In this document: piece after piece, positions 23,489 through 41,826 of the stretch
Layout of the letters: each line of letters begins with the position of its first letter
How positions within the stretch are numbered: the first letter of the stretch is position 1
Source: an uncultured Arcobacteraceae bacterium
GTDB lineage: Bacteria; Campylobacterota; Campylobacteria; Campylobacterales; Arcobacteraceae
Length of the DNA: 64,000 bases
Assembly: GCA_964022095.1 (NCBI GenBank)
Contig: CAXHZO010000005.1
Coordinates: forward strand, 52,870 to 116,869
Reading direction: 5' to 3'
The notes under the pieces: model-generated
Told to the model about the DNA's origin: nothing
Database searches by the model: none
Seen by the model: only the letters and a program-made list of their open reading frames with translations
Position numbers and translations under genes: made by a program

Positions 23489-23549
23489 TTTACTGCTCTT
23501 ATTATAGATTTGAAAAATTATATCATAAATAAAAATATTCACTAATAAC

Positions 23550-23582
23550 TGCGATAATTTTGCGATTTTTTTCCATTAAGAT
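23550..23582 (+). promoter_or_regulatory. TGCGAT tandem box plus -10 element, promoter of dmpK-P
   Basis: TGCGAT-AATTT-TGCGAT-N10-TAAGAT. Confidence 0.78.
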
Positions 23583-23624
23583 TCAAATTGAATTAAAAAT
23601 TCATAATTGAAAAAGGTAGGTGTT

Positions 23625-23873: not shown

Positions 23874-23886
23874 AGGAGTTGAAAAT

Positions 23887-24882
23887 ATGTCTTTAGATAT
23901 AAAAAGTATAGATATTAAGCCAAAAAGAGAAACTTTTGGACACGTGGAAAGAAGAATTGGTGAAGGTAAGATGGCTTCAAGATATGAAGAGGCAACATTT
24001 GATATTCAGCCAGTTGCAAACTTTCATTATAGACCTTATGCAAATCCAGAGTTTGAGTTATATGATCAAAATAAAACTAGCATTAAAATGGAAGACTGGT
24101 ATAAGTTTTTAGACCCAAGACAATACCACTATGCTTCATATGTAACAGCAAGAGCAAAACAACAAGAAGTTGCAGAACAAAACTTTGTTTTTGTAGAAAA
24201 AAGAAATATGTTAGATGTAATGCCAGGAGATATAAAACAAGAAATCTTGAATTATGTTTTACCACTTAGACACTATGAGTGGGGAGCAAATATGAATAAC
24301 CTTCAATTATGTTCAGAAGGATATGGTGCAGCTATTACAAATGCTTATATGTTCCATGCAGAAGATAGATTAGGTAATGCTCAATATCTTACAAGAATTG
24401 GATTATTACTTAGTGAAAATGAACCTGCTGTTTTAGATAATGCAAAAGATAAATGGTTAAATGATGAAGCATGGCAGCCACTTAGAAAAGCAATGGAAGA
24501 TAGCTTTGTTTTACAAGATTGGTTTGAGCTTCATATAGCGCAAAATGTGATTTTCGATGGTTTTATTCATCCTTTAGTATTTGATAAGTACGAGCAAGAA
24601 CTAAACCAAAGAGGTGGAACTGCTCAAACTATGATGACAGAGTTTATCACATCTTGGAATGATGAATCTGCTAGATGGATTGATATGACAGTTAAAGTAG
24701 CAGCTTTAGAACGTGATGAAAATAAAGAGTTATTAAATCAATGGTGTAAAAAGTATATTGATATTGCAAGTAATGCAGCCCTAGCAATTGCTAAAAATAT
24801 AGTTAATAATCCAGAAGAAACAGTTAATAACATACAAGAGCAATTAGTGGCAAGATTAAATAAAAATGGTTTAAACCTATAG
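23887..24882 (+). CDS. dmpL: phenol hydroxylase beta subunit P1
   Basis: ASRYEEATFDIQP-NFHYRP, DPRQYHY and EWGANMNN motifs. Confidence 0.93.
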   Translation: MSLDIKSIDIKPKRETFGHVERRIGEGKMASRYEEATFDIQPVANFHYRPYANPEFELYDQNKTSIKMEDWYKFLDPRQYHYASYVTARAKQQEVAEQNFVFVEKRNMLDVMPGDIKQEILNYVLPLRHYEWGANMNNLQLCSEGYGAAITNAYMFHAEDRLGNAQYLTRIGLLLSENEPAVLDNAKDKWLNDEAWQPLRKAMEDSFVLQDWFELHIAQNVIFDGFIHPLVFDKYEQELNQRGGTAQTMMTEFITSWNDESARWIDMTVKVAALERDENKELLNQWCKKYIDIASNAALAIAKNIVNNPEETVNNIQEQLVARLNKNGLNL

Positions 24883-24890
24883 GAGAAAGA

Positions 24891-25160
24891 ATGTCAAAGG
24901 TATTTTTAGCACTTCAAGCAGTAGATGAAACAAGAGCTATTATTGAAGCTATACAAGAAGATAATGAAAATGTTGAGGTTGAACCACAGCCTGCCATGGT
25001 AAAAATCTCAGCTGAGAAAAAAATGGTAATAAATGCTCAAACTGTATCTGACAAATTAGGTAGAGATTGGGATCCACAAGAGTTACAGTTAGTTTTAATT
25101 TCACTAGCTGGAAATGTTGATGAAGATTATGACCACTTTACAATTTATTGGGAAAATTAG
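24891..25160 (+). CDS. dmpM: phenol hydroxylase regulatory protein P2 (MmoB/DmpM)
   Basis: 89 aa with IIEAI...PAMVKI...LISLAGNVDE. Confidence 0.92.
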   Translation: MSKVFLALQAVDETRAIIEAIQEDNENVEVEPQPAMVKISAEKKMVINAQTVSDKLGRDWDPQELQLVLISLAGNVDEDYDHFTIYWEN

Positions 25161-25171
25161 GAGAAAATATT

Positions 25172-26692
25172 ATGACTATGAGTACACAAAAAAGAAAAAA
25201 ACGTCTAAATATGAAAGACAAATATAAGTATATGACAAGACTTGGTTGGGAAACTACATATCAAGATATGGATGATGTTTTCCCTGAAGATAAATTTGAG
25301 GGTATAAAAATTCATGATTGGGAAGCTTGGGAAGATCCATTTAGAATGACAATGGATGCTTATTGGAAATACCAAGGTGAAAAAGATAAGAAACTATATG
25401 CAATTATTGATGCTTTTGCTCAAAATAATGGACAAAAAAATATTTCAGATGCAAGATATGTATCCGCATTAAAACTGTTTTTAACAGGTGTTTCACCTTT
25501 AGAATATCAAGCACATAGAGGTTTTGCAAATATTGCAAGAGCTTTTAGAGGTGATGGTCCAAGAGTTGCATGTCAAATGCAAGCTATTGATGAGTTAAGA
25601 CATGTTCAAACACAAATTCATACTTTAAGCCATTATAACAAATACTTTAATGGTTTTTCAGAGTGGGCACATTGGCATGATAATGTATGGTACTTATCTG
25701 TTCCTAAATCATTCTTTGATGATGCAAGAGCAGCAGGTCCTTTTGAGTTTATTATTGCTATTGGATTCTCATTTGAGTATGTATTAACTAATCTATTATT
25801 TGTACCGTTTATGAGTGGTGCAGCTTATAATGGAGATATGGCAACAGTTACATTTGGATTCTCAGCTCAAAGTGATGAGGCAAGACATATGACTTTAGGT
25901 TTACAAGCTATCAAGTTCTTATTAGAGCAAGACCCTGCAAATGTTCCTATTGTTCAAAAGTGGATTGATAAGTGGACTTGGAGAGGTTATAAAGTTTTAG
26001 GACTAGTATCTGCAATGATGGATTATATGTTACCTGATTCACCACAGTCTTGGAAAGAAGCTTGGGAATTATATTTTGAGCAAAATACAGTTGCACTATT
26101 TAAAGATTTAGAAAGATATGGAATTACAGTTCCAGATTGTGCAGCAACAATAAAAGCTGAAAAAGAGCATATTTCTCATCAAGTTTGGATGACACTATAT
26201 ACTCATAATGCAGCAGCACCTTTCCATACGTGGATTCCAGATGAGAAAAAAATGGATTGGTTAAGCGAAAAGTATCCTGAAACTTTCGATAAATATTACA
26301 GACCAGTTTATGAACACTGGAATAAGTTAGAAAAAGAAGGTACGAGATACTACTCTGAAATGCTTCCTCAGTTATGTCAAACTTGTCAGTTACCAATGTT
26401 AGCAACAGAAGTTGAAAAAGGTGAACCAACTCAAATTGCACATAGACATACTATGTACAATAATGAGAGATTCCATTTCTGTTCAGATCATTGTCAAGAT
26501 ATTTTTGAAAATGAACCTGAAAAGTATATTCAATCTTGGTTACCAGTTCATCAAATCTTCCAAGGAAACTGTGGAGGTGCTACACTTCCAGAAGTACTTA
26601 AATGGTATAAGGTTGAATTTGGACAAGATAATCTTGATTATGTAGGTTCTCAGGATCAAAAAATGTGGAAAGAATGGAAGGGAGAAGCATAA
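25172..26692 (+). CDS. dmpN: phenol hydroxylase alpha (di-iron) subunit P3 with YHS domain
   Basis: Two DExRH motifs (IDELRH, SDEARH), WEDPFR, CQTCQ and FCSDHC; ATG at 25172 after AGGAG. Confidence 0.96.
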   Translation: MTMSTQKRKKRLNMKDKYKYMTRLGWETTYQDMDDVFPEDKFEGIKIHDWEAWEDPFRMTMDAYWKYQGEKDKKLYAIIDAFAQNNGQKNISDARYVSALKLFLTGVSPLEYQAHRGFANIARAFRGDGPRVACQMQAIDELRHVQTQIHTLSHYNKYFNGFSEWAHWHDNVWYLSVPKSFFDDARAAGPFEFIIAIGFSFEYVLTNLLFVPFMSGAAYNGDMATVTFGFSAQSDEARHMTLGLQAIKFLLEQDPANVPIVQKWIDKWTWRGYKVLGLVSAMMDYMLPDSPQSWKEAWELYFEQNTVALFKDLERYGITVPDCAATIKAEKEHISHQVWMTLYTHNAAAPFHTWIPDEKKMDWLSEKYPETFDKYYRPVYEHWNKLEKEGTRYYSEMLPQLCQTCQLPMLATEVEKGEPTQIAHRHTMYNNERFHFCSDHCQDIFENEPEKYIQSWLPVHQIFQGNCGGATLPEVLKWYKVEFGQDNLDYVGSQDQKMWKEWKGEA

Positions 26693-27054
26693 TGGCAATT
26701 GTAAGTAAAGGTGAATATCCAGTAATTATGATGGATAGTGTAGATAAGTTTCATGGTAACCAATTAGTATATGTAGGTTGGGATAAACATAAGTTAATCA
26801 ATTCAGCGATGGCTTTTCCTTTACCACCACAAATGCCTTTTAAGGCATTAGTGCATGAAGTAATGCCAGGTTGTTATAAAGATCATCCAGATTTTGAAAA
26901 AGTTGTATGGGATGATTCTGTTATTTGGAGATTAAACGGTGAAGAGTTTACTCCTGATTTTGAAAAATCTCTTGAAGATAATGGAATTGATCATAAGTCA
27001 TTAGTTAGATTTGAAACACCAAATCTAACAGGAATTAACGGAGTAGGAATGTGA
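26692..27054 (+). CDS. dmpO: phenol hydroxylase gamma subunit P4
   Basis: YVGWDKH...HPDF...GIDHKSLVRFETP; ATG overlaps the dmpN stop. Confidence 0.9.
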   Translation: MAIVSKGEYPVIMMDSVDKFHGNQLVYVGWDKHKLINSAMAFPLPPQMPFKALVHEVMPGCYKDHPDFEKVVWDDSVIWRLNGEEFTPDFEKSLEDNGIDHKSLVRFETPNLTGINGVGM

Positions 27055-28109
27055 GTTATCAAGTAGAAATAGAACCAACAGGAGATGTAGTAGAAGTTCA
27101 AGATGGTCAAACTATTCTTGATGCTGCATTAAGACAGGGGGTATATATTCCCCATGCGTGCTCTCATGGTTTATGTGGTACTTGTAAGGTAGAGATATTA
27201 GAAGGTGAAGTTGACTATGGTGCAGCTTCTCCTTTTGCCCTTATGGATATGGAAAAAGATGAGGGAAAATGTCTTGCTTGTACTGCTACACCAATGGAAG
27301 ATTGTGCTATAGAAGCTGATGTTGATGAAGATCCAGATGCTAAATCAATACCTGTAAAAGATTTTATGGGAACAGTTGTTGAGGTGAAGGATTTAACACC
27401 TAGAATAAAAGGTATTTTTATAGAATTAGATGAAGAGATTGAGTTTCAAGCAGGTCAATATGTACAATATCATGTACCAGGATTTGAAGAACCAAGAGCA
27501 TTTTCTTTATGTAACTCTTCAAATGATAAAAAAATTGTAGAGTTAAATATTTCTTTAGTTCCAGATGGAGAAGCAACTCCATGGATTCATAAAAATGTAA
27601 AAGTTGGTGCAAGAAGAAAAGTATCAGGACCTTATGGAAGATTTTTTGTAAGAGAATCTGCTCAAAAACCTATGATTTTCTTTGCAGGTGGTTCAGGTCT
27701 TTCAAGTCCAAAATCTATGATTTTAGAGCAGCTTGAAAATGGAAGTAAACAAGAAATAACACTTTTTCATGGTGCTAGAAATGAAGAAGAGTTATATTAT
27801 GCAGATTTATTTAGAGACTTAGAGCAAAAGCATGAGAACTTTACATATGTACCTGTTTTATCCGATGAAGATACTCCTTCTTGGGAAGGGAAAAAAGGTT
27901 TTGTAAATGATGCTGCAAAAGAAGTTTTTGAAAATGACTTCTCTGGAAAAAAAGCATATCTTTGTGGACCTCCACCTATGATAGATGCTTGTATTACAAC
28001 ATTAATGAGAGGAAGACTTTACGAAAAAGATATTTATACTGAAAAGTTCTTCTCAAAAGCTGACTTAAATGCTGAAAATCAGCGTTCCCCTTTATTTAAA
28101 TCAATTTAA
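27051..28109 (+). CDS. dmpP: phenol hydroxylase reductase P5 (2Fe-2S/FAD/NAD)
   Basis: CSHGLCGTC, RAFS, GPYG, AGGSG and YLCGPPPM motifs. Confidence 0.95.
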   Translation: MSYQVEIEPTGDVVEVQDGQTILDAALRQGVYIPHACSHGLCGTCKVEILEGEVDYGAASPFALMDMEKDEGKCLACTATPMEDCAIEADVDEDPDAKSIPVKDFMGTVVEVKDLTPRIKGIFIELDEEIEFQAGQYVQYHVPGFEEPRAFSLCNSSNDKKIVELNISLVPDGEATPWIHKNVKVGARRKVSGPYGRFFVRESAQKPMIFFAGGSGLSSPKSMILEQLENGSKQEITLFHGARNEEELYYADLFRDLEQKHENFTYVPVLSDEDTPSWEGKKGFVNDAAKEVFENDFSGKKAYLCGPPPMIDACITTLMRGRLYEKDIYTEKFFSKADLNAENQRSPLFKSI

Positions 28110-28129
28110 AATTTTTAAAAAGTAGTTTT

Positions 28130-28162
28130 TGCGATTTTTCTGCGAAACTATTTCTGTAAAGT
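28130..28162 (+). promoter_or_regulatory. TGCGAT tandem box plus -10 element, promoter of the meta-pathway genes
   Basis: TGCGAT-TTTTC-TGCGAA-N10-TAAAGT. Confidence 0.72.
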
Positions 28163-28207
28163 TAAAAAGTCAAAAAGCTATGACTTTTAAATAAAAAAGG
28201 GGATGTT

Positions 28208-28528
28208 TTGAAATATGAAATCTTCGTAAAAGATAAAGACAAAACTAAAACTTGTCTTGAATCTAAACATCTTATGGATGGTTTATATGTATATGATAAT
28301 CTAGTTCCAAAGGGTTGTCATAATGGTGCCTGTGGACTTTGTAAGGTTAAAGTTCATAGAGGAGACTACAAAAAATGCAAAATGAATAGAAAACACATCT
28401 CATGTGAAGAAGAGAGTGCAGATATTCTTTTAGCTTGTAAGACATTTCCTAGAAGTGATATGGAAATAGAATTTATACGTAGAGACTTATCTAAAGAAAA
28501 ATCCCAAGTTTATGTACTTGGTAATTAA
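28208..28528 (+). CDS. dmpQ: XylT/DmpQ-type plant-like ferredoxin
   Basis: GCHNGACGLCKV...MNRKHIS...LAC; directly before the C23O gene. Confidence 0.88.
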   Translation: MKYEIFVKDKDKTKTCLESKHLMDGLYVYDNLVPKGCHNGACGLCKVKVHRGDYKKCKMNRKHISCEEESADILLACKTFPRSDMEIEFIRRDLSKEKSQVYVLGN

Positions 28529-28545
28529 ATAATTAGGAGAAAGTA

Positions 28546-29493
28546 ATGAGCAGTATTATGAGATTAGGTCATGTTGATATTAATGTATTAGATATTAATG
28601 AATCAAGAGACTATTATGAAAATATTATGGGTATGGAAGTTACAAGAGAAGACTCTGATGGAACACTTTATTTAAAGTGCTGGGATGAATGGGATAAATA
28701 CAGTCTTATTTTAAGACCTAGTGAAGAAGCAACATATAATAAGGTTGCGTATAAAGTAGAAAAAGATTCTGATATAGATGATTTTAAAGAAAAAATCGAA
28801 AAATATGGAATAAAAACAGAGATTTTAGAAGCTGGAACTATTCCTGAATGTGGAAGGGTATTAAAGTTTATATCTCCAAGTGAGCATGAATTTAATTTAT
28901 ATGCTGAAAAAACATTTGTAGGTAAAAAAGTAGGTCACACTAATCCTGCACCTTGGCCAATTGATGGAAAAGGTATCAAAGCTCACTGGATTGATCATAT
29001 TTTATTAATGACTCAAGGTCCTGAAAAATTAATGGAAGCTACTAAGTTCTTTGAAGAAGTATTTGATATGAAATTAGCAGAGCAAGTTTGTGTAGGACCT
29101 GAGGGCTCAGTTCAGGCTGCAACATGGTTAAGTGCTGGAAACACTCCTCATGATTTAGCTTTTGTTGCTGGAGCAGAAACTGGTATGCATCATTTTGCAT
29201 TTTTCTTAGATGGTTGGAATGATATTTTAAGATCAGCAGATGTTATGGCTATGAATAATGTTAAGTTAGATGTTACTCCTCAAAGACATGGTATTACAAG
29301 AGGTGAGACTATTTATTTCTTTGACCCATCAGGACATAGACTTGAGACATTTGCAGGTCTAGGTTATGCAGTTTGTAAAGATATGCCAACAGTTACTTGG
29401 ACAGAAGATGAACTATGGAGAGGTATTTTCTATCATACAGGTCAAGAAAATGGTGCATTTACAACTGCATATACATTATCAGCTTATAAATAA
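28546..29493 (+). CDS. dmpB: catechol 2,3-dioxygenase
   Basis: RLGHV, WDEWDKYS, HHFAF and RHGITRGETIYFFDPSGHRLE motifs. Confidence 0.96.
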   Translation: MSSIMRLGHVDINVLDINESRDYYENIMGMEVTREDSDGTLYLKCWDEWDKYSLILRPSEEATYNKVAYKVEKDSDIDDFKEKIEKYGIKTEILEAGTIPECGRVLKFISPSEHEFNLYAEKTFVGKKVGHTNPAPWPIDGKGIKAHWIDHILLMTQGPEKLMEATKFFEEVFDMKLAEQVCVGPEGSVQAATWLSAGNTPHDLAFVAGAETGMHHFAFFLDGWNDILRSADVMAMNNVKLDVTPQRHGITRGETIYFFDPSGHRLETFAGLGYAVCKDMPTVTWTEDELWRGIFYHTGQENGAFTTAYTLSAYK

Positions 29494-29515
29494 AAGAAAA
29501 ATTTAGGAATTTAAA

Positions 29516-29944
29516 ATGTTGACAAAAACATCAAGAGATTTGACAAGTCAAACAGCTTTAAAGCTTTGTGAGTTATCAATTGAAAAGGCTAATGAATTAA
29601 ATATAAAAATAAATGTAAGTGTTACAGATTCAAAAGGGATTGAACTTGCATTTATAAGAATGGATGATTCTTTTATTCATTCAAGTCAAATAGCAAAAGA
29701 TAAGGCTTATACAAGTGCAAGTTTTGGTTTTAACTCAGATATATGGACTCAAGTTTTCAAAAGTGAACCTCATTTAGAACAAGGTTTTTCTAATAGAGAT
29801 AGATTAATACCTTTTGGTGGAGGGCTTACTATTTTTGAAAATGAAGAAAAAGTTGGAGCCATTGGTGTTTCAGGCGGAACTGAACAAGAAGATATTATTT
29901 GCGCGAAGTATGCAATAGAAAGGATAGGATTAAATAATGAATAA
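29516..29944 (+). CDS. GlcG/HbpS-family heme-binding protein (NahX-like accessory)
   Basis: RMDD...KAYTSASFG...FGGG...GAIGVSGG motifs. Confidence 0.85.
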   Translation: MLTKTSRDLTSQTALKLCELSIEKANELNIKINVSVTDSKGIELAFIRMDDSFIHSSQIAKDKAYTSASFGFNSDIWTQVFKSEPHLEQGFSNRDRLIPFGGGLTIFENEEKVGAIGVSGGTEQEDIICAKYAIERIGLNNE

Positions 29945-31394
29945 AGTACAACACTATATTAACGGACAATTTTTAGATTCATCTTGTGGGGAGTTTTTTG
30001 AGAATATCAACCCTATGAATGGTCAAGTATTATCTCAAGTAGCCCTAGGACGAGAAGATGAAGTGAATGCAGCAGTTGCAGCAGCTAAAGCAGCTCTTAC
30101 TGGTGAATGGGGTCAAATGAAATTAAATGACAGAATTGCAATGATGTATGAAATTGCTGAGGAAATTGATAGAAGATTTGATGATTTCTTAGAAGCTGAA
30201 TGTTTAGATACAGGTAAACCTTATTCTATTGCAAGACATATTGATATCCCAAGAGGTGCTGCAAATTTTAAAGTATTTGCAGACACTATGAAATCTGTTG
30301 CAGATGAAGCTTATAGAATGGATACACCTGATGGAAAAGTAGCTATGAATTATTCTATGAGAAAACCTAAGGGGGTTATTGGTGTAATTTCTCCATGGAA
30401 TTTACCATTACTTTTAATGACTTGGAAAGTTGGTCCTGCAATGGCTTGTGGAAATACAGTAGTTGTGAAACCATCACAAGTTACACCAACAACAACATCT
30501 TTACTTGGTGAAGTAATGTCAAAAGTTGGTGTTCCTTCTGGTGCATATAATGTAGTACAAGGAAAAGGTTCAATTACTGGAAATTTATTAACAGCTCATA
30601 AAGATGTAGATGCTTTAACTTTTACAGGTGAGACAAAAACAGGTGAGATGATTATGAAAGCTTGTTCTCATGGTGTTAGAGATGTATCCTTAGAGCTTGG
30701 TGGAAAAAACCCAGCTATTGTTTTTGCTGATTGTGATATGGATAAGGCAATTGCTGAGACTACAAGATCGTGTTTTGCTAACTCTGGTCAAGTTTGTTTA
30801 GGAACTGAAAGAGTTTATGTTCAAAGAGAAATTTTTGATGAATTTGTATCAAAACTAAAAGAGTCAGCTTTAAAACTAAAACTTGGAATTCATAATGATG
30901 AATCAGTTGATATGGGGCCAGTAGTTAGTGCTGCTCATAGAGATAAAGTATTAGAGTTTTATGACATAGCTAAAAAAGAGGGTGCAAATGTAATTTTAGG
31001 TGGAGGTGCTCCTAAAATGGAAGGTGATTTAGCAAATGGATTCTTTGTTGAACCTACTATTTGGACTGGTCTTCCTGAAGATGCAACAGTTGTAAAACAA
31101 GAAGTATTTGGACCTTGTTGTCATATTGCACCTTTTGATAGTGAAGAAGAAGTTATTAAAATGGCTAATGATACAGATTATGGACTAGCATCTACAATAT
31201 TTACAGAAAATTTAGATAAGGCTCATAGAGTAGCTTCACAAATTGACTCAGGAATTGTATGGATTAATTCATGGTTCTTAAGAGATTTAAGAACACCATT
31301 TGGTGGAATGAAAGGTTCTGGTATCGGAAGAGAGGGTGGTCACCACTCATTAGAGTTCTATACTGAACTTAAAAACGTATGTATAAAAATGTAA
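29937..31394 (+). CDS. dmpC: 2-hydroxymuconic semialdehyde dehydrogenase
   Basis: PWNLPLLL, LELGGKN, NSGQVCL and WFLRDLRTPFGG motifs. Confidence 0.95.
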   Translation: MNKVQHYINGQFLDSSCGEFFENINPMNGQVLSQVALGREDEVNAAVAAAKAALTGEWGQMKLNDRIAMMYEIAEEIDRRFDDFLEAECLDTGKPYSIARHIDIPRGAANFKVFADTMKSVADEAYRMDTPDGKVAMNYSMRKPKGVIGVISPWNLPLLLMTWKVGPAMACGNTVVVKPSQVTPTTTSLLGEVMSKVGVPSGAYNVVQGKGSITGNLLTAHKDVDALTFTGETKTGEMIMKACSHGVRDVSLELGGKNPAIVFADCDMDKAIAETTRSCFANSGQVCLGTERVYVQREIFDEFVSKLKESALKLKLGIHNDESVDMGPVVSAAHRDKVLEFYDIAKKEGANVILGGGAPKMEGDLANGFFVEPTIWTGLPEDATVVKQEVFGPCCHIAPFDSEEEVIKMANDTDYGLASTIFTENLDKAHRVASQIDSGIVWINSWFLRDLRTPFGGMKGSGIGREGGHHSLEFYTELKNVCIKM

Positions 31395-31403
31395 GGGTGT
31401 AAT

Positions 31404-32198
31404 ATGTCAATGACTCAAGAAAAAATTGAAAAGTATGGAAATGAATTGTATGAGGCTTTAAAAGGAAACTATACAATTGAGCCTATTTCAAATAGAGAAC
31501 CTGATTCTACAATTGAAGATGCTTATGCTATTCAACATCACTTTTTAAAAAGAAGAATGGAAGATGATGGAAGTAAAATTATTGGTAAAAAAATTGGTGT
31601 TACATCAAAGGTTGTTATGGACATGTTAGGTGTTCATCAACCTGATTTTGGTTACCTTTTATCAGATATGATTTACTCTGATGGTGATGTAATAAATGTA
31701 ACAAGTGGAATGATTCAGCCAAAAGCAGAGGGTGAAATAGCCTTTGTTTTAAAAGAAGATTTATGTGGACCAGGAGTTACAGCTGCTGATGTTATTAAAG
31801 CAACAAAATTTGTAATGCCTTGTTTTGAAATAGTTGATTCAAGAATCAAAGATTGGAAAATTAAAATCCAAGATACAGTTGCTGATAACGCTTCATGTGG
31901 ATATATGGTATTTGGAGGACAAAGTGTATCTCCTTTAGATGTTGATTTAACAACTTGTGGAATAACTTTAGAGAGAAATGGTGAGTTATTACATACAGGA
32001 GCAGGTGCAGCAGCTCTTGGTAGTCCTGTAAATGCAGTAGTTTGGCTTGCAAATAAACTTGGAGAGTTTGGTGTATCGCTAAAAGCAGGTGAGGTTATTT
32101 TATCAGGGGCTTTATGTGCAATGGTAGATATAAAACCAGGTGATAATATGACTGCAAGTATTGGTGGCGTTGGTTCTGCCTCAATCAGATTTGAATAA
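31404..32198 (+). CDS. dmpE: 2-oxopent-4-enoate hydratase
   Basis: GKKIGVTSK...QPDFG and WKIKIQDTVADNAS motifs. Confidence 0.92.
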   Translation: MSMTQEKIEKYGNELYEALKGNYTIEPISNREPDSTIEDAYAIQHHFLKRRMEDDGSKIIGKKIGVTSKVVMDMLGVHQPDFGYLLSDMIYSDGDVINVTSGMIQPKAEGEIAFVLKEDLCGPGVTAADVIKATKFVMPCFEIVDSRIKDWKIKIQDTVADNASCGYMVFGGQSVSPLDVDLTTCGITLERNGELLHTGAGAAALGSPVNAVVWLANKLGEFGVSLKAGEVILSGALCAMVDIKPGDNMTASIGGVGSASIRFE

Positions 32199-32210
32199 AA
32201 GGTAAATACA

Positions 32211-33095
32211 ATGGAAAAAATAAATTGTGCATTAATTGGGTCTGGAAATATTGGAACAGACCTAATGTATAAACTAAAAAGAAGTGAAATATTAAATCCT
32301 TTATGGATGGTTGGTATTGACCCTGAGTCTGATGGTTTATTAAGAGCTAAAGAAGATGGTATGAAAACAACAGCCGAAGGTGTTGATGGATTACTTCCTT
32401 TTATTAAAGAAGATGGTGTAAAGATTGCATTTGATGCAACATCAGCTTATGTTCATGGTGAAAATAATAAAAAGTTAGCGGAACTTGGAGTTCAAGTTAT
32501 TGATTTAACTCCTGCTGCAATAGGACCATTTTGTGTGCCATCAGTTAATATGGAAGAGCTACTTGCTCAAAATACTCAAAATGTAAATATGGTTACTTGT
32601 GGTGGGCAAGCTACTATTCCTATGATTGCCGCTGTATCAAAAGTTCAGGAAGTTGAATATGCAGAAATTGTAGCAACAGCAGCTTCTAAGTCAGCAGGTC
32701 CAGGAACTCGTGCTAATATTGATGAGTTTACTGAAACTACAAAACTTGGAATAGAGCAAGTAGGTGGTGCTAAAAAAGGTAAAGCAATTATTATTTTAAA
32801 TCCTGCAGAACCACCTTTAATGATGAGAGATACAATTCATTGTTTAACAAGTGAAAAACCTGATGAAGAAGCTATTACTAAATCAATCCATGAAATGGTT
32901 GAAACTATGCAAGAGTTTATTCCAGGGTATGTGTTAAAAAATGGACCAGTTTTTGATGGTAATAAAATCTCTATTTGGTTAGAAATTGAAGGTTTGGGGG
33001 ATTATTTGCCTAAGTATGCAGGTAACCTAGACATTATTACAGCAGCAGCAACAAATATTGCAGAACAAATGGCTAAAAAGATTAAAGGAGCATAA
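32211..33095 (+). CDS. dmpF: acylating acetaldehyde dehydrogenase
   Basis: [22 protein letters not shown] and YAGNLDI motifs. Confidence 0.95.
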
Positions 33096-33096
33096 G

Positions 33097-34125
33097 ATGG
33101 ATTTACAAGGTAAAAAAATAAAAATTCATGATATGTCTTTAAGAGATGGAATGCACTCAATTAGACATCAATTTTCACTTGAAGAGATGACAAATATGTC
33201 AACAGCAATGGATAAAGCAGGTGTTCCTTTTATTGAAGTTACTCATGGAGATGGACTTGGTGGTTCATCACTTAACTATGGATGGGGAAGACATACTGAT
33301 GAAGAGTGGTTAGATGCAGTAGTGCCAAATATGACACAAGCTAAAATCTCAGCTCTTTTACTTCCAGGAATCGGTATTGTAAAAGATTTAGAAAAAGCTG
33401 TTGATCATGGTATTTCTATGGTTAGAGTAGCAACTCATTGTACGGAAGCTGATTGTTCAGCCCAACATATAAAAGCTGCTAAATCAATGGGACTTGATAC
33501 AGTTGGATTTTTAATGATGGCTCATATGGTTGATGAAAAAAGATTAGTTGAGGAAGCTTCTAAAATGGTTTCTTATGGAGCTACTACTATTTATGCAACT
33601 GATTCAGCTGGCTACTTACTTCCTGATATGGTAAGTTCTAGAATTAAAGCATTAAAAGCAGAGTTTGGTGATGAAATTGAACTTGGTTTCCATGGGCACA
33701 ATAATTTATCAATGGGTGTTGCAAACTCTTTAGCTGCTATTGAAGCAGGTGCTACACGAATTGATGCTTCACTTGCAGGTTTTGGAGCAGGTTCTGGAAA
33801 CACTGCAACTGAAGTATTAGTTGCTGTTTGTAATAGAATGGGTGTTGATACAGGTGTTAATCTTGAAGCTATTGAAGATGCAGCTGAGGATATTGCACTT
33901 CCTATTATGGGTAAACCTACAAGAATCTCAAGGGATTCTATTACTTTAGGTTATGCAGGTGTTTATTCATCATTTTTACTATTTGCTAGACGAGCAGAAG
34001 AAAAGTATGGAATAGATGCAAGATCTTTACTTGTTGAATTAGGTAGAAGAGGAATGATTGGTGGTCAAGAGGATATGATTGATGATTGTGCTATGGAATT
34101 AGCTAAACAAAAAGGATTATTATAA
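33097..34125 (+). CDS. dmpG: 4-hydroxy-2-oxovalerate aldolase
   Basis: [21 protein letters not shown] and [13 protein letters not shown] at 33097 after AAGGAG. Confidence 0.95.
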
Positions 34126-34913
34126 TGGCATTAGATAAAGCAACAATAGAAAAACTTGCAAAGCATTGTGAAGATGCAGAATTGCAAGCTTATGAGATTA
34201 CAAAAATTACTGATGATTACCCAGAAATGACATATGAAGATGCATATGATATTCAATGGACTGCAAGGGCTGCTAAGGAAGCAAGAGGTCATAAAATAGT
34301 TGGTATGAAAATGGGGCTTACTTCACAGGCTAAAATGAAACAAATGGGAGTTCCAAATCCTTGTTATGGATATCTTGCTGATTACTTTGCATATGGTGAT
34401 GGGGCAGAAATACCATATGACGAATTAATTCATCCAAAAGTTGAAGCTGAAATTGCTTTTGTATTAAAAGATGATTTAAGTGGTCCGGGATGTCATATAG
34501 GTGATGTATTAGCTGCTACTGATTTTGTAATGCCTGCTGTTGAGATTATTGATTCAAGATATAAGGATTTTAAATTTGATTTAAAATCTGTAATTGCTGA
34601 TAACTCTTCATCTTCTAGATATGTAAGTGGTGGTATGGCAAAAAAAGCTAATGAAGTTGATTTAAAAACTTTAGGTGTCGTAATGGAAATAAATGGTGAA
34701 GTTGTACAACTTGGAGCAGGAGCTGCAGTTCTTGGTCATCCAGCAACTGCTATTGCAATGCTTGCAAATATGATGAGTGAACGAGGTGAGGTTTTAAAGG
34801 CTGGATCTTATATCTTAAGTGGAGCAATTACAGCTGCAACTACTGTTAATAAAGGTGATAATGTAACTGTTAAGTTTCAAGATTTAGGAACTTTATCATT
34901 TAAATTTGTATAG
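34125..34913 (+). CDS. dmpH: 4-oxalocrotonate decarboxylase
   Basis: KMGLTSQAKMKQMGV and FDLKSVIADNSSS motifs. Confidence 0.92.
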   Translation: MALDKATIEKLAKHCEDAELQAYEITKITDDYPEMTYEDAYDIQWTARAAKEARGHKIVGMKMGLTSQAKMKQMGVPNPCYGYLADYFAYGDGAEIPYDELIHPKVEAEIAFVLKDDLSGPGCHIGDVLAATDFVMPAVEIIDSRYKDFKFDLKSVIADNSSSSRYVSGGMAKKANEVDLKTLGVVMEINGEVVQLGAGAAVLGHPATAIAMLANMMSERGEVLKAGSYILSGAITAATTVNKGDNVTVKFQDLGTLSFKFV

Positions 34914-34918
34914 AAAAT

Positions 34919-35068
34919 AAGAGCAACTTATTGCTTTTAAAAAATGGGATATTTTAAGGACAACTTGTTGTCCCTTTAGGGTTTGCTTCTTTAAAGATGG
35001 CTTTGCCATCTTGTTAAAAGAAGTTAAATATGTAAGGTCCCTTAAAAAATGGGACATTTTTTAAGGAG
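34919..35068. repeat. cluster of short palindromes between dmpH and dmpI; the last stem overlaps the dmpI SD
   Basis: GGACAAC-tt-GTTGTCC; AAGATGGC-ttt-GCCATCTT; CCTTAAAAAATG-gga-CATTTTTTAAGG; TTAAAAAATGGGA occurs twice. Confidence 0.7.
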
Positions 35069-35074
35069 TATATT

Positions 35075-35266
35075 ATGCCAATAGCAACTATAAATATAAT
35101 CGAAGGCAGATCTGATGAGCAAAAAGAGAAGCTTATAGAAAAAGTAACTCAAGCAATTCACGAAGCTATAGATGCACCAAAACAAAATGTTAGAGTGATT
35201 TTAAATGAAATGCCAAAACAACATTTTGGAATAGGTGGAGAAAGTGTAAAAAAGATGGGGCGATAA
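35075..35266 (+). CDS. dmpI: 4-oxalocrotonate tautomerase
   Basis: N-terminal Pro (MPIA), EGRSDEQK and FGIGG; 63 aa. Confidence 0.95.
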   Translation: MPIATINIIEGRSDEQKEKLIEKVTQAIHEAIDAPKQNVRVILNEMPKQHFGIGGESVKKMGR

Positions 35267-35267
35267 A

Positions 35268-36275
35268 GTGTTAAAATTAAGTGTATTAGACCAATCTCCA
35301 ATTCATGATGGAAAAGAAGCAAAGCAAGGCTTATTTGATACTATTGAATTAGCAAAATCTTGTGAAGACTTAGGTTATTATAGATATTTATTAGCAGAAC
35401 ATCATGATACACCTGGCTATGCTTCTTGTGCCCCTGAGATTATGGTTAGTGCAGTTGCTTCAAATGCTTCAAAAATTAGAGTTGGTAGTGGTGGAGTTAT
35501 GCTAAATCACTATAGCTCTTTTAAAGTAGCAGAGACTTTTAATACACTTAATGCTTTATACGATAATAGGATTGATTTAGGTGTAGGAAGAGCTAGTGGC
35601 GGAAGTTTTTTAGCTACTAGAGCTTTGCATTCAAATCAAAGTGATTATTCAAAAAAAGTTTATGAAACAATAAATTATTTAGATAAAACAGTTCCTTTAA
35701 ATTCTTCATTTAGTGGATTGACTTTATCCCCAGTTCAAGAAAATAGTACTCCTGTGTATTTACTAGGTTCTAGTAATTCAAGTTCTTCTTTAGCAGGAGT
35801 TTTAGGTGCAGGTTTTATCTTAGCACTATTTATAGGAACACATGAAAGAAATTCTTCAATAATACAAGAGTATAAAAAAACATTTAATAAAAGTCATAAT
35901 TTTAAAAAGCCAAAAGCTAGTATTGCAGTTGCTTGTATTGTTGCAAAGGATAAAGAAGAAGCAAGATATATAGCAAGTACACATACTTATTGGAAGTTAC
36001 AAGCTTTCAGACAGCCTACAAGGGATGATTTACAAAGCCCACAAGCAGTTCAAGAACTAATAAAAGATTTAAGCCTTGAAGATAGACAATATTATGAAGA
36101 AACAATGAATACCATGATATTGGGTAATGCAAAAGAGTGTAAAGAAGAAATAGAGAAATTAGCTTTAGAATATGAAGTTGATGAGGTAATTATTGTGAAT
36201 GTGACTTATTCTTTTGAGCATAGAAAAAGATCATATGAACTTTTAGCAAAAGAGTTTGATTTAAATAAGGAGTAA
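35268..36275 (+). CDS. luciferase-like (LLM) flavin-dependent oxidoreductase
   Basis: LSVLDQSP, AEHH, RVGSGGVML and RIDLGVGRA motifs. Confidence 0.88.
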   Translation: MLKLSVLDQSPIHDGKEAKQGLFDTIELAKSCEDLGYYRYLLAEHHDTPGYASCAPEIMVSAVASNASKIRVGSGGVMLNHYSSFKVAETFNTLNALYDNRIDLGVGRASGGSFLATRALHSNQSDYSKKVYETINYLDKTVPLNSSFSGLTLSPVQENSTPVYLLGSSNSSSSLAGVLGAGFILALFIGTHERNSSIIQEYKKTFNKSHNFKKPKASIAVACIVAKDKEEARYIASTHTYWKLQAFRQPTRDDLQSPQAVQELIKDLSLEDRQYYEETMNTMILGNAKECKEEIEKLALEYEVDEVIIVNVTYSFEHRKRSYELLAKEFDLNKE

Positions 36276-36277
36276 AA

Positions 36278-37096
36278 ATGTCAAATCCAGAAATAGCAAA
36301 TAGTATTAATACGGGTAATTATAATACTAACTATCATGATTTAGGTGAGGGTGAAGTAGTTTTATTTATCCATGGTTCAGGACCAGGGGTTTCAGCCTTT
36401 GCAAACTGGAGATTAACAATGCCCCAGCTTGCAAAAAACTTTAGAGTAATAGCTCCTGATATGGTAGGCTTTGGTTATAGTGATAGACCTAATGATATTA
36501 CTTATAGTATGGATGTATGGGTAGAGCAAGCTATTAATTTAATGGATGCTTTAAAAATAGAAGAATTTAATATCGTTGGTAACTCTTTTGGTGGAGGCTT
36601 GGCTTTATGTTTAGCTATAAAATATCCAAATAGAGTGAATAAAATGGTATTAATGGGTGCAATGGGTGTTGATTTTGAAATAACAGCTGGACTTGATCAA
36701 GCATGGGGATATACTCCAAGTATAGAAAACATGAAAGCTTTATTAGATACATTTGCATATAGTAGAGAACTAGTAACAGATGATTTAGCAAAAATGAGAT
36801 ATGAAGCTAGTATTAGACCTGGATTTCAAGAATCATTTAGTTCAATGTTTCCCGAACCAAGACAAAATAGTGTAAAATCAATGGCAAGTGATGAAAAAGA
36901 AATAGCTTCTATTGATAAAGATGTTTTAATTATCCATGGTAGAGATGATAAGGTGATTCCTTTTGAAAACTCAATTAGATTGCATAATCTAATAGAAAAG
37001 TCACAATTACATGGTTTTGGACAATGTGGACATTGGTCTCAAATAGAACATAAGGATAGATTTAATAAACTACTTGAAGATTTCTTTTTAGAATAG
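36278..37096 (+). CDS. dmpD: 2-hydroxymuconic semialdehyde (meta-cleavage product) hydrolase
   Basis: HGSGPGVSAFANW, GNSFGG nucleophile elbow, HGRDD, CGHWSQIE. Confidence 0.9.
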   Translation: MSNPEIANSINTGNYNTNYHDLGEGEVVLFIHGSGPGVSAFANWRLTMPQLAKNFRVIAPDMVGFGYSDRPNDITYSMDVWVEQAINLMDALKIEEFNIVGNSFGGGLALCLAIKYPNRVNKMVLMGAMGVDFEITAGLDQAWGYTPSIENMKALLDTFAYSRELVTDDLAKMRYEASIRPGFQESFSSMFPEPRQNSVKSMASDEKEIASIDKDVLIIHGRDDKVIPFENSIRLHNLIEKSQLHGFGQCGHWSQIEHKDRFNKLLEDFFLE

Positions 37097-37104
37097 GAGT
37101 AGAT

Positions 37105-38043
37105 ATGAACTTTTTAATTTTAGGTACAGGTGGAATAGGCGCATTTTACGGAGCAAGATTATTAAGTTCATCAAATAAAGTTACATTTGTCGCAAGGAGT
37201 TTGCACTTAGAAGCTATAAGAAAAAATGGCTTACAAGTGCAACATCCTGATTTTTCCTTCTCTCAAAAAGTAGATGTATCACAACTACAAGATATAGACT
37301 TCACTTCTTTAAATATTGATGTAATAATTCTAACTACAAAATCAAATACAACTAAAATAATAGCAAAAGAGCTTTCTTTTAAACTAGATACATTAAAAGA
37401 CAAACCATATATTTTATCTTTACAAAATGGTGTTGAGAATGAGAAATTTTTATGTGAATATTTTCAAAAAGATAAAATAATAGGTGGACTAACTAGAAAA
37501 ATAGGTGCTCATATTATAAAACCCTCTTTTATAGAAGCCACAGGTAAAGTAGAAACTCTAATAGGTGCAATTTCCCAAACTAAAGAAAACACAGCTTTTT
37601 TAAAGAAGTTAAATAAAAGTATAAATGAAGCTGGTATTTTATGTGAAGTTGTTGATGATATAAATAAAGAGCTTTGGAAAAAACTTATTATAAACAATGG
37701 AGTAAATGCTATTTGTGCTTTACTCAAAATTAAAACTGGTGTTTTAATGAATAATGAAAAACTTTCATCTTTAGTTTATAGTCTAATGAAAGAGACTCAA
37801 AGTGCTGCAAAAGCTTGTAGTATAGAAATTACTAACAATGAACTAAGTCAAATGTATGAGTTAATTAAAAATTTTGACTCAATTAAACCCTCAATGCTAG
37901 TTGATAGAGAGTTTAAAAGAGAATTAGAAATAGATGAAATCTGTAATGTAGTAATAAACTATAATAAAATGCAAAATATAGATAGCCCTTATACTAAATC
38001 AATCTCTTATTTACTTGATTTTGTGTATAAAAATGAAAAATAA
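37105..38043 (+). CDS. panE: ketopantoate reductase (ApbA/PanE) family protein, copy 2
   Basis: GTGGIG, LQNG, LWKKLIIN and KPSM motifs. Confidence 0.75.
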   Translation: MNFLILGTGGIGAFYGARLLSSSNKVTFVARSLHLEAIRKNGLQVQHPDFSFSQKVDVSQLQDIDFTSLNIDVIILTTKSNTTKIIAKELSFKLDTLKDKPYILSLQNGVENEKFLCEYFQKDKIIGGLTRKIGAHIIKPSFIEATGKVETLIGAISQTKENTAFLKKLNKSINEAGILCEVVDDINKELWKKLIINNGVNAICALLKIKTGVLMNNEKLSSLVYSLMKETQSAAKACSIEITNNELSQMYELIKNFDSIKPSMLVDREFKRELEIDEICNVVINYNKMQNIDSPYTKSISYLLDFVYKNEK

Positions 38044-38050
38044 AACTATT

Positions 38051-38083
38051 TGCGATTAATCTGCGATAAGTTTTTATTATTAT
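38051..38083 (+). promoter_or_regulatory. TGCGAT tandem box plus -10 element before an ORF-less segment
   Basis: TGCGAT-TAATC-TGCGAT-N10-TATTAT. Confidence 0.7.
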
Positions 38084-38089
38084 TACCTT

Positions 38090-38278
38090 TGAAATAGGTG
38101 CAAGTGATATATTTATTTTTGAAGTTGTAGTACCTATTATGTTTTTTGCTTTTAAACTTATAAATGCTTTCTTTTTATCACTTACAACTTCAAAGCGACT
38201 TATATGAAGTTTCTCCTTTCATAAAAAAATGATTTAGACATAAATACGGCATTTTATATGCCGTATGCCCTTATTTTA
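38090..38278 (+). ncRNA. candidate structured sRNA or leader RNA with anti-SD loop
   Basis: Own promoter box; several complementary segments; TATGAA-gtttctcct-TTCATA hairpin; terminal ATACGGCAT-tttat-ATGCCGTAT hairpin. Confidence 0.5.
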
Positions 38279-38290
38279 ACTTATAAAAAG

Positions 38291-38323
38291 TGCGATAATT
38301 TTGCGATTTAATTTAATTAAAAT
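38291..38323 (+). promoter_or_regulatory. TGCGAT tandem box plus -10 element, promoter of the porin gene
   Basis: TGCGAT-AATTT-TGCGAT-N10-TAAAAT; the 17-mer is identical to the dmpK site. Confidence 0.78.
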
Positions 38324-38398
38324 CTTTAATGTAGAGTACCAACTATATATTGCGCGTGTATGGTAGTCTAGAAAATTTCGAAATCTTGGAGAGATAAA

Positions 38399-39565
38399 AT
38401 GAAAAAAATTACAAAATTAAGTATGGCTGTATGTTTACTACTTAGTAGTTCAGTTTTTGCTGATACTTTAGAAGAAGCATTTTCTAATTCAAAAGTAAAG
38501 GGTGAATTAAAAGCACAATACTTTGATAAGCAAAGTCCATTAGATGGTAAAAACGATAATATTTTTGTTATAGGTGGAAATATAAATATCGTAACGGGTT
38601 CTTTTTATGGATTAAATGCAGGAGTTACATTTCAAGCTTCACATGTAGTAGATAGATCTATTGAGGCAACAAATGATTTTGCTAACACAATGGATGCATC
38701 AGGTGCTGTAATGTCTGAATCATATTTAGCATATACTTTAAATAATACAACATTAAAAGTTGGTAGACAGTATATTACAACTCCTTTAGTTGCAGGATCT
38801 GGGTCTAGAATGATTAAAGAGTCTTTTGAAGGTGTTACTTTAACAAATACAGATTTAGCTGATACAACTATAGTTGCTGCATATGCAAATAAGTTCCAAG
38901 GAAGAACAGATGGTGCTGAAAACCCAGGTGAGTTTGATAAGTATGAAGATGGAGCATATACTTTATATCTGAAAAACAACTCTATTGAAAACTTGACACT
39001 ACAAGGTCAGTATTTAGATGTAGATGGAAGTACTGCAAATACTGATAAAAATGCTTTATATATAGATGGTGTTTATGATGCTAGTATTGCAAAAGTTTCA
39101 CTACAAGTAATTGATTCTACAAATGATAGTAATGCTAAGTCTGATGGTAGATTATATGGGGCTAAAGTTAGTGGAAATATAGGAATGGTTAATTTAACAG
39201 GATTATATACAAGTACTACTGATGATGGTGATGTATTTGTTGGTGCTGGAAATGGTGCTGATTCTGGTTATACAGCTTTACCAATTCATGGTGGAAGTGT
39301 AACATATAAAGCAAACACAGATACAATGGTTGCTGTTGCAGCTACACAATTAGCAGGGGCTACTGTTGTTGCGTATATAGGACAAGTAAAATCACCTGAT
39401 AATAATAACTTAGGTGGTTCAGATAAGATTGATGCTTATGGTGGATTTGTACAGTATGCATTTAATAAAAATTTCTCAACAAAAGTTATGTATGAAAACG
39501 CTTCATTTAGCGATACTTTAAAAGATTCAAATGCTTTAAGAGTTTATACTTCATATAAATTTTAG
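38399..39565 (+). CDS. outer-membrane porin (OprD/Campylobacterota Opr-like)
   Basis: Signal peptide, LKVGRQYITTPL motif, C-terminal YKF beta-barrel signature. Confidence 0.82.
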   Translation: MKKITKLSMAVCLLLSSSVFADTLEEAFSNSKVKGELKAQYFDKQSPLDGKNDNIFVIGGNINIVTGSFYGLNAGVTFQASHVVDRSIEATNDFANTMDASGAVMSESYLAYTLNNTTLKVGRQYITTPLVAGSGSRMIKESFEGVTLTNTDLADTTIVAAYANKFQGRTDGAENPGEFDKYEDGAYTLYLKNNSIENLTLQGQYLDVDGSTANTDKNALYIDGVYDASIAKVSLQVIDSTNDSNAKSDGRLYGAKVSGNIGMVNLTGLYTSTTDDGDVFVGAGNGADSGYTALPIHGGSVTYKANTDTMVAVAATQLAGATVVAYIGQVKSPDNNNLGGSDKIDAYGGFVQYAFNKNFSTKVMYENASFSDTLKDSNALRVYTSYKF

Positions 39566-40545: not shown

Positions 40546-41826
40546 ATGCAAGCAGTTTCAGGTTTATTAATTTTTTCATCTTTTTTAACAACATTGTATG
40601 CTTATTTTTTCAATAATGAATTATTACTTTTAGCAGGCGCTTTAGCTTGGAGTGCTTTTATAATTTTGTTTATGTCGTTAAAGAGTAAAAAACTATTGAT
40701 AATACTGTTTATTTTAAGTTTGTCTGCTTTGTTTTTTTCATATGCAAATGCATATGAAATTAACTTTTATAAGCTTTTTACAGTTAATCAATATCTATTA
40801 ACCCTTTTAATAGGAGTGGGCTTTTTAAGACTTATTACAACACCAAAAAAAGAGAATATAAAAAAATCACCTATAGGAAGTAACTCTTTTATAAAAACAT
40901 ATTTGGGAGTTCATTTTTTTGGTTCAGTTATAAATATGTCTTCTTTACTTTTAGTTGCAGATAAAATGTACAAAAAAGCTAAACTCACAGATGCACAGTT
41001 AGTTCTTTTAACAAGGGCTTTTGGTTCAGATGCATATTGGTCTCCATTTTTTGTTGCCTTTGCAGCAGCTATGACCTACGCTCCAAATTTAGATACTCAA
41101 GTAATTATGGTAAATGGCTTTATATTATTTTTAATAGGTTTTGCAATTACATATTTTGAAGTAAAAAAAGATAATAAATTTGATTTAAAGAATTTTAGTG
41201 GGTATCCAATTTCACTTGATAGTTTGGTGTTACCATTTACTCTTGCTTTTTTAGTTTTAATTACAAACTATTTTATAAAAGATTTAAAAGTTATTGTTTT
41301 AATAGCTTTATTTTCTATTATATTAGCATTAGTTGTATTACCTATAAAAAAAGGTATAAAACAATCATTTGAAATTTTTAAAAATCATATTTTTTATGAA
41401 TTACCTAAAATGAAAGTTGAGATGTCGTTATTTTTGATCGCAGGTATGTTTGGTATATCTATTAGTTCTATTCTTTTTGGCATAGGAGTTGAGCTGCCGT
41501 TTGAAAAGTTTGATTGGATAGTTGCTTCAATATTTTTAGCAATTTTTATTATCTTAGGTTTCATAGGAATTCATCCTATTATATCTATTGCTATTGTTGG
41601 TGAGTTTTTAAGTAGTGTAAATCATACTCTTTTTGCAGTTGCATTCTTAATGTCATGGGCAACTACTGTGTCAACATCTATTTTTAGTGGATTAAACTTA
41701 ACAATTATTTCAAGATATAATTTAGACTCAAAAAGAGTATTTAAATTAAATATAATATATGCATTTAAAATGTATATTCTATCAGTTGTTTTTTTGTATT
41801 TCTTATCAAAATATTTAAATATCTAA
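40546..41826 (+). CDS. uncharacterised multi-pass membrane protein, possible transporter
   Basis: 426 aa with many hydrophobic helices; WSPFF and GIHP motifs. Confidence 0.65.
   Translation: MQAVSGLLIFSSFLTTLYAYFFNNELLLLAGALAWSAFIILFMSLKSKKLLIILFILSLSALFFSYANAYEINFYKLFTVNQYLLTLLIGVGFLRLITTPKKENIKKSPIGSNSFIKTYLGVHFFGSVINMSSLLLVADKMYKKAKLTDAQLVLLTRAFGSDAYWSPFFVAFAAAMTYAPNLDTQVIMVNGFILFLIGFAITYFEVKKDNKFDLKNFSGYPISLDSLVLPFTLAFLVLITNYFIKDLKVIVLIALFSIILALVVLPIKKGIKQSFEIFKNHIFYELPKMKVEMSLFLIAGMFGISISSILFGIGVELPFEKFDWIVASIFLAIFIILGFIGIHPIISIAIVGEFLSSVNHTLFAVAFLMSWATTVSTSIFSGLNLTIISRYNLDSKRVFKLNIIYAFKMYILSVVFLYFLSKYLNI

Follow-up and report, generated by a model that had tools for sequence, protein, structure and literature searches.

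We report a predicted non-coding RNA of about 175–185 nt (38091..38275, + strand) that lies between a phenol-catabolism operon and a porin gene, bounded by a putative promoter of its own (P1) and by an intrinsic terminator. The window, by which we mean the whole 64,000-nt stretch that was analysed, comes from a low-GC, 2.57-Mb genome that is 99.99% complete (G000). The evidence below makes it highly probable that this is a real, conserved, structured non-coding element. Our preferred reading, to which we give a probability of roughly 0.5, is that it is a new response-regulator-dependent small RNA (sRNA) gene of about 175 nt, doubling as the 3' untranslated region (UTR) of the operon and acting in trans. 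Since compensating mutations preserve its helices among related bacteria of marine origin, the element is probably a new regulatory RNA.

Genomic Context of the RNA Element

The island in which the element lies was annotated with Pfam. A multicomponent phenol hydroxylase (23887-28109) is followed by genes for ferredoxin, catechol 2,3-dioxygenase and meta-cleavage enzymes, and the meta-cleavage operon ends with an ApbA/PanE-like gene (37105..38043, + strand); an EamA transporter gene is also present. The RNA element is within the 355-nt spacer that separates the ApbA gene from an OprD-like porin gene (38399..39565, + strand), its constant downstream neighbor. Encoded on the − strand are a PAS/HisKA_2 histidine kinase (22193-23542) and an OmpR-type response regulator (21432-22190). 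Such phenol operons are classically controlled by a sigma-54 activator of the DmpR/XylR type. Here, the hydroxylase cluster is flanked by the HWE-like PAS/HisKA_2 kinase and the OmpR-type regulator, and its promoters display direct repeats and sigma-70–like −10 boxes.

Two further features of the island were recorded. First, there are two ApbA/PanE paralogs (37105-38043 and 17909-18859) with a mutual identity of about 41%, and the former has no close counterpart in the islands of two related genomes, G112 (a 45% match) and G197 (an N-terminally unaligned match). Second, a 426-residue open reading frame (ORF) at 40546-41826, which has no Pfam match at E values up to 1e-5, is kept in the G111, G112, and G197 islands with 62-67% identity.

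A genome from another genus, G024, encodes an ApbA protein 98% identical to that of the window, and the phenol-hydroxylase promoter also matches there at a collinear distance (C1:318299-333210). When 61 relatives were searched at the DNA level with a 361-nt query (the spacer plus a few flanking bases), the G024 copy was 99% identical, with 3 differing positions. Being 99% identical in two genera over the stretches compared, the phenol island (23543-38400) looks to have been recently transferred horizontally between genera.

Distribution and Conservation

Searches with the porin and with ApbA yielded diverged copies in loci L018 (the G111 stretch) and L019 (the G202 stretch) and in G200, where the RNA element is divided between the ends of two contigs. 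With ApbA, 184 genomes of the family were searched, and the repeat motif of P1 was found downstream in seven entries, from five genomes, among the 32 ApbA-linked loci examined. A covariance model (R1) built on five sequences matched 7 of 151 family genomes, newly adding G112 and G197, and none of 140 genomes sampled from other families of the order. The relatives with names that carry the locus bear the titles Arcobacter and Poseidonibacter. The order of features is constant across the seven genomes—last operon gene, P1, RNA, hairpin, porin promoter (P2), porin—while the identity of the upstream gene differs, with an alpha/beta hydrolase in G112 and G197 and ApbA elsewhere. One further locus, L020, encodes a porin 56% identical to that of the window, preceded by P2, and the RNA element is absent. 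The sequence-only reading had made its candidate sRNA depend on conservation at homologous loci, and both sequence and structure are indeed conserved there.

The RNA element had no match in a plasmid collection, and blastn of the window spacer against 137 loci found no relative among those that came from a metagenome scan; the degenerate element pattern used in that scan was too loose and returned at least 117 stretches. A hit from a sensitive search in G110 (genus g3, E 0.047) was rejected as noise because it falls at the end of a coding region and has no promoter motif. In Rfam 15, there was no match at gathering thresholds anywhere in the window, and the best subthreshold scores within 38030-38410 were 22.2 bits vs. 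a threshold of 49.9 for freshwater-2 (− strand) and 17.8 vs. 75 for Ocean-V. As judged from these comparisons, the element is a member of no described RNA family; the covariation looked for in the same context was found in its helices across related loci, as detailed below.

Sequencing runs offered two side observations. Among the differences listed for isolate run X9, the spacer has 3 substitutions and 1 insertion in 355 nt, compared with 21 substitutions over 642 nt of ApbA. In run X14, position 38073 is followed directly by 38292 in a minor contig (depth 3 vs. 7.9, upstream identity about 87%), so that the RNA is left out; if real, the junction would create four TGCGAT repeats in a row, in a natural variant lacking the RNA. 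Since this contig seems to lack the RNA segment, the element may be dispensable.

Promoters P1 and P2

P1, which sits 8 nt past the ApbA stop codon (38043), consists of a direct repeat, TGCGAT-N5-TGCGAT (TGCGATTAATCTGCGAT, 38051..38067, + strand), and of a −10 hexamer, TATTAT (38078..38083, + strand), exactly 10 nt after the second repeat. Position 38051-38083 had been read as a full regulon promoter from the sequence alone. We confirmed both the repeat and the hexamer and found that the layout is common to four other units of the island. With up to two mismatches allowed, the repeat has five matches in the window vs. 1.34 expected, a number reached by 1 of 100 shuffles. These sites, at 21409 (−), 23550 (+), 28130 (+), 38051 (+), and 38291 (+), are all intergenic and directed at a gene or at the RNA element, and the hexamers 10 nt past the repeat are TAAGAT, TAAGAT, TAAAGT, TATTAT, and TAAAAT, respectively. 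A genome-wide scan gave at least 33 sites with up to two mismatches; among the sites listed, which do not include that at 28130, the combination of 0-1 mismatch and a TAnnnT hexamer occurs only at four sites on the island contig. The site at 28130-28146 (TGCGATTTTTCTGCGAA followed by TAAAGT) is an internal regulon promoter between the hydroxylase reductase and the ferredoxin/dioxygenase genes, so the island is seemingly transcribed from several co-regulated promoters.

The P1 operator is kept in G024, G111, G112, G197, G200, and G202, where hexamers at the same spacing read TACTAT, TATTAT, TATTAT, TAATAT, TAATAT, and TAAAAT. At the level of motifs, the element thus has what an independent sRNA gene should have, a promoter of its own, with repeat and −10 hexamer at fixed spacing in seven of seven genomes. 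The repeats are the putative binding site of the island's OmpR-type response regulator, and we read direct repeats spaced by 11 bp over the −35 region, near an OmpR-family regulator gene, as a probable activator-dependent promoter. Its inducing signal would be phenol, and the predicted start site lies near 38090-38092.

As the sequence-only reading had proposed, the porin has a separate promoter. This promoter, P2 (38291..38323, + strand), comprises TGCGAT-N5-TGCGAT at 38291-38307 and TAAAAT at 38318-38323 and is conserved in all homologs, L020 included. In addition, an alignment shows that the porin 5' UTR (38331-38398) is conserved down to G202. It contains a GTACCA...TGGTAG stem, then TTGCGCG and TTCGAAATCT just before the Shine-Dalgarno sequence, and it may be a second regulatory element.

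Extent, Terminator, and Coding Potential

The 3' end of the element is set by an intrinsic-terminator hairpin (38244..38266, + strand) of 9 bp, including 4 G-C pairs, followed by GCCCTTATTTTAAC. A terminator scan of 37800-38600 found two terminator-like sites, which are this same hairpin on both strands, vs. 0.2 expected, and no other such site between the stop codon at 38043 and position 38244. The hairpin is therefore as described in the sequence-only reading, where its U-tract was called modest; we would call it poor. In the six sequences that were folded, a 3' hairpin is found at the same place before P2 every time, built from three unrelated stem sequences, with stems of 14-15 bp in G202 and G197 and tails that contain U, the tail in the window being the poor one.

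The view that the segment holds no credible ORF was also upheld. There are four ORFs of 20-22 residues, none of which is conserved: the ATG of the 22-residue ORF is deleted in L018, and a second ORF has undergone a frameshift or is shortened to 6 residues. Small peptides (the 22-residue ORFs, MKFLLS) were thus rejected, as neither start codons nor frames are conserved, and the segment has no conserved reading frame, as expected for an independent sRNA gene.

When folded as RNA, the + strand of 38090-38278 reaches −38.6 kcal/mol with a z score of −3.95, a value matched by 0 of 200 shuffles. The − strand has a z score of −2.96, which is expected for inverted repeats. The + strand is favored by the helices and terminator, in which there are about 11 G·U vs. 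3 A·C cells; this excess of G·U, the direction of the promoter and the U-containing tails together point to transcription of the + strand.

With no terminator belonging to the operon ahead of P1, transcription of the operon should continue into the RNA, in which case the element and the upstream mRNA would share a terminator, as 3' UTR-embedded sRNAs do. This raises the question of whether the element is instead a cis-acting module of the 3' UTR, whose main role would be to shield the long mRNA of the operon against 3' exonucleases or to control how efficiently transcription terminates, with P1 adding little. Such a module would account for the lack of a terminator between the last operon gene and the element, for the position of the element after the last operon gene whichever gene that is, and for the conserved terminator hairpins. 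A stabilizer, however, needs neither a regulon promoter whose −10 hexamer is conserved in every lineage, nor an invariant 12-nt unpaired stretch, nor a 5' end placed 2-3 nt before the first helix, as in six of seven genomes. The conserved promoter and the placement of the 5' end disfavor a pure 3' UTR stabilizer, which we regard as unlikely.

The terminator also bears on the suggestion, made from the sequence alone, that the element might be a switchable leader for the porin. In such a leader or attenuator, transcription from P1 would under certain conditions continue past the hairpin, with the crossing helices described below serving as alternative states of the switch. The element does adjoin the porin in seven of seven genomes, its three segments are pairwise complementary as in attenuators, and the U-tract in the window is weak. 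However, the terminator is followed by a conserved regulon promoter and a conserved 5' UTR that belong to the porin itself, with P2 between terminator and porin in all seven genomes, and L020 has porin and P2 without the element. In an informal look, nothing was found that could disrupt the terminator stem by alternative pairing, the only possible competitor in the window being a 6-nt AAATGC/GCATTT match that is weaker in L018; the G202 and G197 stems reach 14-15 bp, as noted above. Moreover, the helices share a single nucleotide, U38183, and so need not be alternatives. Strong terminators, a separate conserved promoter and the porin's own conserved 5' UTR make the leader less likely, and we hold it to be about as improbable as the stabilizer. 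With no antiterminator found in that look, and with the terminator and conserved P2 separating the RNA from the porin, this part of the sequence-only reading is weakened. The preferred reading remains the response-regulator-dependent sRNA gene.

Three Mutually Crossing Helices Covary

The RNA contains three helices, all on the + strand, whose pairings had been seen in the sequence and are present as described. Helix a pairs 38093..38101 with 38130..38138 (9 bp, including one G·U). Helix b pairs 38102..38109 with 38176-38183 (8 bp). Helix c (12 bp) pairs 38118..38129, which abuts the 3' arm of helix a, with 38183-38194, so that the 3' arms of helices b and c form one contiguous segment (38176..38194). 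The sequence-only reading had two of these pairings crossing; in fact, the order of the arms is a-b-c-a'-b'-c', and each helix crosses the other two. Between a' and b' lies a stretch, TTTTGCTTTTAA (38144..38155, + strand), that is invariant in the alignments of all seven genomes and unpaired in all models.

Helix a is retained with covariation. In every genome 7-9 of its 9 positions pair, and the pair types vary at positions 2, 4, 6, and 8; position 2 is G·U, G-C, or A-U depending on the genome, and three further pairs are replaced on both sides in G202 (CUGGAUGC/GCAUCCAG). In helix c, 10-12 of 12 positions pair around an invariant core (GAAGUUGU/ACAACUUC). Covariation is seen at the three outer pairs: G197 and G200 have C-G in place of U-A, and G202 shows three changes. 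One or two mismatches are found in each of G111, G112, and G202, those in G111 being A·C. In an alignment of five sequences, 93.8% of 97 cells of helices a and c pair, vs. 30-48% for slid partners, and six pairs change on both sides, values that 1 of 500 shuffles reaches; the first six letters of the G200 row are misaligned in that alignment. The pair tables for seven genomes agree with this result.

Helix b had to be judged by duplexes in individual sequences rather than by column counts, because the 3' arms of G197, G200, and G202, in which the C/U hairpin is on the other side of b'c', resisted alignment with the others by MAFFT. The helix exists in several versions: 1) AAGUGAUA/UAUCACUU in the window, in G024, and, with 7 bp, in G112, 2) GGUAUAUA/UAUAUAUC and GUGGUAUA/UAUAUCAU in G197 and G200, and 3) UAGUGGU/ACCAUUA in G202. 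In each version, b comes directly after a, and b' directly before c'. Compared with all window pairs of its own RNA, the duplex is within the top 0.15-1.4% in five of six sequences, while that in G111 is bulged and weak (9%).

Taken locally, [a b], [c a'], and [b' c'] correspond to the three strands of a three-way junction in which no more than 1 junction nucleotide is left unpaired, and U38183 is the single position used by two helices. The strands follow one another in the opposite cyclic order to that of an ordinary junction, which means that linkers must span the distal ends. The linker from b to c ranges from 8 to about 90 nt, and that from a' to b' is at least 37 nt; by a simple estimate of distances, 8 nt should be enough if b and c are at an acute angle. 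In six of seven copies, helix a begins 8-9 nt past the P1 hexamer, i.e., ~2-3 nt past the expected start of the transcript.

It could be argued that there is no functional RNA here, the conserved DNA being a regulator-binding or recombination sequence in which the pairings are inherited by chance. The lineages are few, about four being independent, with G202 alone accounting for three of the helix a double changes and two of those in helix c; AT-rich DNA folds easily; and the − strand has a z score of −2.96 as well. Whole-RNA fold z scores are modest in some homologs (−1.40 in G112, with 17 of 200 shuffles as good, and −1.88 in G202, with 3 of 100), a point for the sceptic that would also follow if a nested fold has room for just one of the three helices. 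Chance inheritance, however, fits poorly with compensatory double changes in three helices, with G·U pairs tolerated on the + strand only, or with terminators conserved in place and not in sequence. We consider it very unlikely.

If the three helices coexist, they would form a rare pseudoknot topology and a sensing or binding domain, e.g., for a metabolite of the phenol pathway or for the island's regulator. The element would then be an aptamer-type or sponge sRNA, in which the three-helix core is a binding fold and not a scaffold for a seed. Consistent with this, all three crossing helices appear to be under selection, invariant unpaired nucleotides adjoin the junction, and our scans found no base-pairing target. 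On the other hand, the searches made here found no precedent, G000 has no CsrA or Hfq to sponge, and the linkers vary from 8 to about 90 nt. We therefore see an aptamer-bearing sRNA of a new class as a long shot, slightly behind the stabilizer and the porin leader, and continue to favor a trans-acting sRNA.

C/U-Rich Segments and Putative Targets

The sequence-only reading had singled out an exposed anti–Shine-Dalgarno loop. The hairpin in question (38203..38223, + strand), in which TATGAA at 38203-38208 pairs with TTCATA at 38218-38223 around a C/U-rich loop (GTTTCTCCT), is present and weak: it is absent from the full-length minimum free energy structure, and its stem is found only in the window and in the 99% identical G024 copy. 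What stands is the CUCC motif, which occurs in six of seven genomes. It is found at two different positions, after c' in the window, G024, and G111, and between a' and b' in G197, G200, and G202, being in a predicted loop in the latter three and unpaired in G111. In G112 it is absent and replaced by AUUCUUUUCUU. Because of this absence and of the shifting position, an exposed C/U-rich stretch is a common feature of the element and not a defining one.

Hfq (PF17209) was not found in G000 by a search that was positive in 5 of 14 control genomes, and CsrA was not found either. Any pairing would therefore not depend on those chaperones. Target scans were performed with RNAduplex against 2013 crude start regions, derived from a home-made ORF caller. 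The whole RNA gave implausibly long duplexes and no credible target, and the two unpaired segments gave no outlier. Duplexes with porins reached −19.5 for the window's own porin and −18.7 for the C1 paralog, against a background of −13.3 ± 3.3, and there was no convincing complementarity to the three paralogous porin mRNAs. Among island start regions in four species, no target was consistent, the best candidate being the start region of the phenol hydroxylase small subunit (about −19 kcal/mol), found in the window and G111 only. Complements of the invariant 12-mer are at chance level (74 vs. 60 expected); one in the porin coding region (38507-38518, one mismatch) was rejected since it is not kept in G112 and G197. 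A target search had been proposed along with the sequence-only reading; in our genome-wide, porin-paralog, and island scans, there was no outlier and no target with complementarity conserved across species. Since the island moves between genera, our guess is that the most plausible targets are in the island itself or among highly conserved core mRNAs.

Discussion

Taken together, these findings lead us to propose the following scenario for this small non-coding RNA gene, which would belong to a horizontally transferred phenol-catabolism island. The OmpR-type regulator would bind the TGCGAT repeats over the −35 region of P1, and a transcript would start near 38090-38092, almost at the foot of helix a, and end at the 38244-38266 hairpin. 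This RNA would carry the a-b-c-a'-b'-c' helices, the unpaired UUUUGCUUUUAA that is unchanged in all seven genomes at 38144-38155, and C/U-rich unpaired stretches. It would have a dual origin, as a P1 transcript and as the 3' UTR of the operon, and would presumably be induced and made together with the catabolic enzymes and the porin. Independently of Hfq, its unpaired U/C-rich segments would pair with mRNAs in trans.

How does this compare with known systems? In enterobacteria, OmpR-activated sRNA genes adjoin porin genes, as in micF/ompC and micC/ompN. Similarly, the element is short, non-coding, ends at an intrinsic terminator, and lies beside a co-regulated porin, with a putative OmpR-family promoter whose repeats are 11 bp apart. 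Unlike micF and micC, it has no Rfam match, is in tandem with the porin whereas those genes are divergent, shows no convincing complementarity to the three paralogous porin mRNAs, and is found in a genome with no Hfq. sRNAs of the DapZ/MicL type are embedded in 3' UTRs and have their own promoter while sharing the terminator of the mRNA. The element likewise lies at the 3' end of an operon, with its own promoter and a sole terminator common with the upstream mRNA, although its promoter is 8 nt past the stop codon and theirs are inside the coding region. EutX/Rli55 are regulatory sRNAs with a structured sensing domain in a catabolic two-component regulon. The element too would be an sRNA with a structured core in a catabolic island under a two-component system, but it matches no known aptamer, no ANTAR-type regulator was seen, and ligand binding is speculative here. 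By analogy, its gene organization is most like that of OmpR-controlled, porin-adjacent sRNA genes and of 3' UTR sRNAs with their own promoter.

Within Campylobacterota, the Helicobacter pylori RepG sRNA (PMC8295292) has a C/U-rich loop. The C/U-rich unpaired motif of our element could similarly pair with a G-rich leader or a Shine-Dalgarno sequence in a host that, like that of RepG, lacks Hfq. However, the motif is not in all seven genomes and is not homologous to that of RepG, and the three-helix crossing core contrasts with simple stem-loops. Our literature searches, which included the Arcobacter passages of PMC6429828, found no regulatory RNA for Arcobacter-type bacteria, phenol degraders among them, or for their aromatic-compound catabolism; the supplements of that paper hold unnamed Arcobacter motifs.

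The candidate travels with its island, and the response-regulator promoter motif in front of it is the one that also precedes the genes for the catabolic enzymes and the uptake porin. Provided that the RNA is expressed, these bacteria, which have neither Hfq nor CsrA, would control a catabolic regulon at the post-transcriptional level as well. With three helices that all cross one another, each supported by covariation, the element also offers a compact system in which to test an unusual RNA topology. Should these helices coexist in a binding fold, the RNA would belong to a new class of sRNAs, bearing an aptamer and encoded on a catabolic island.
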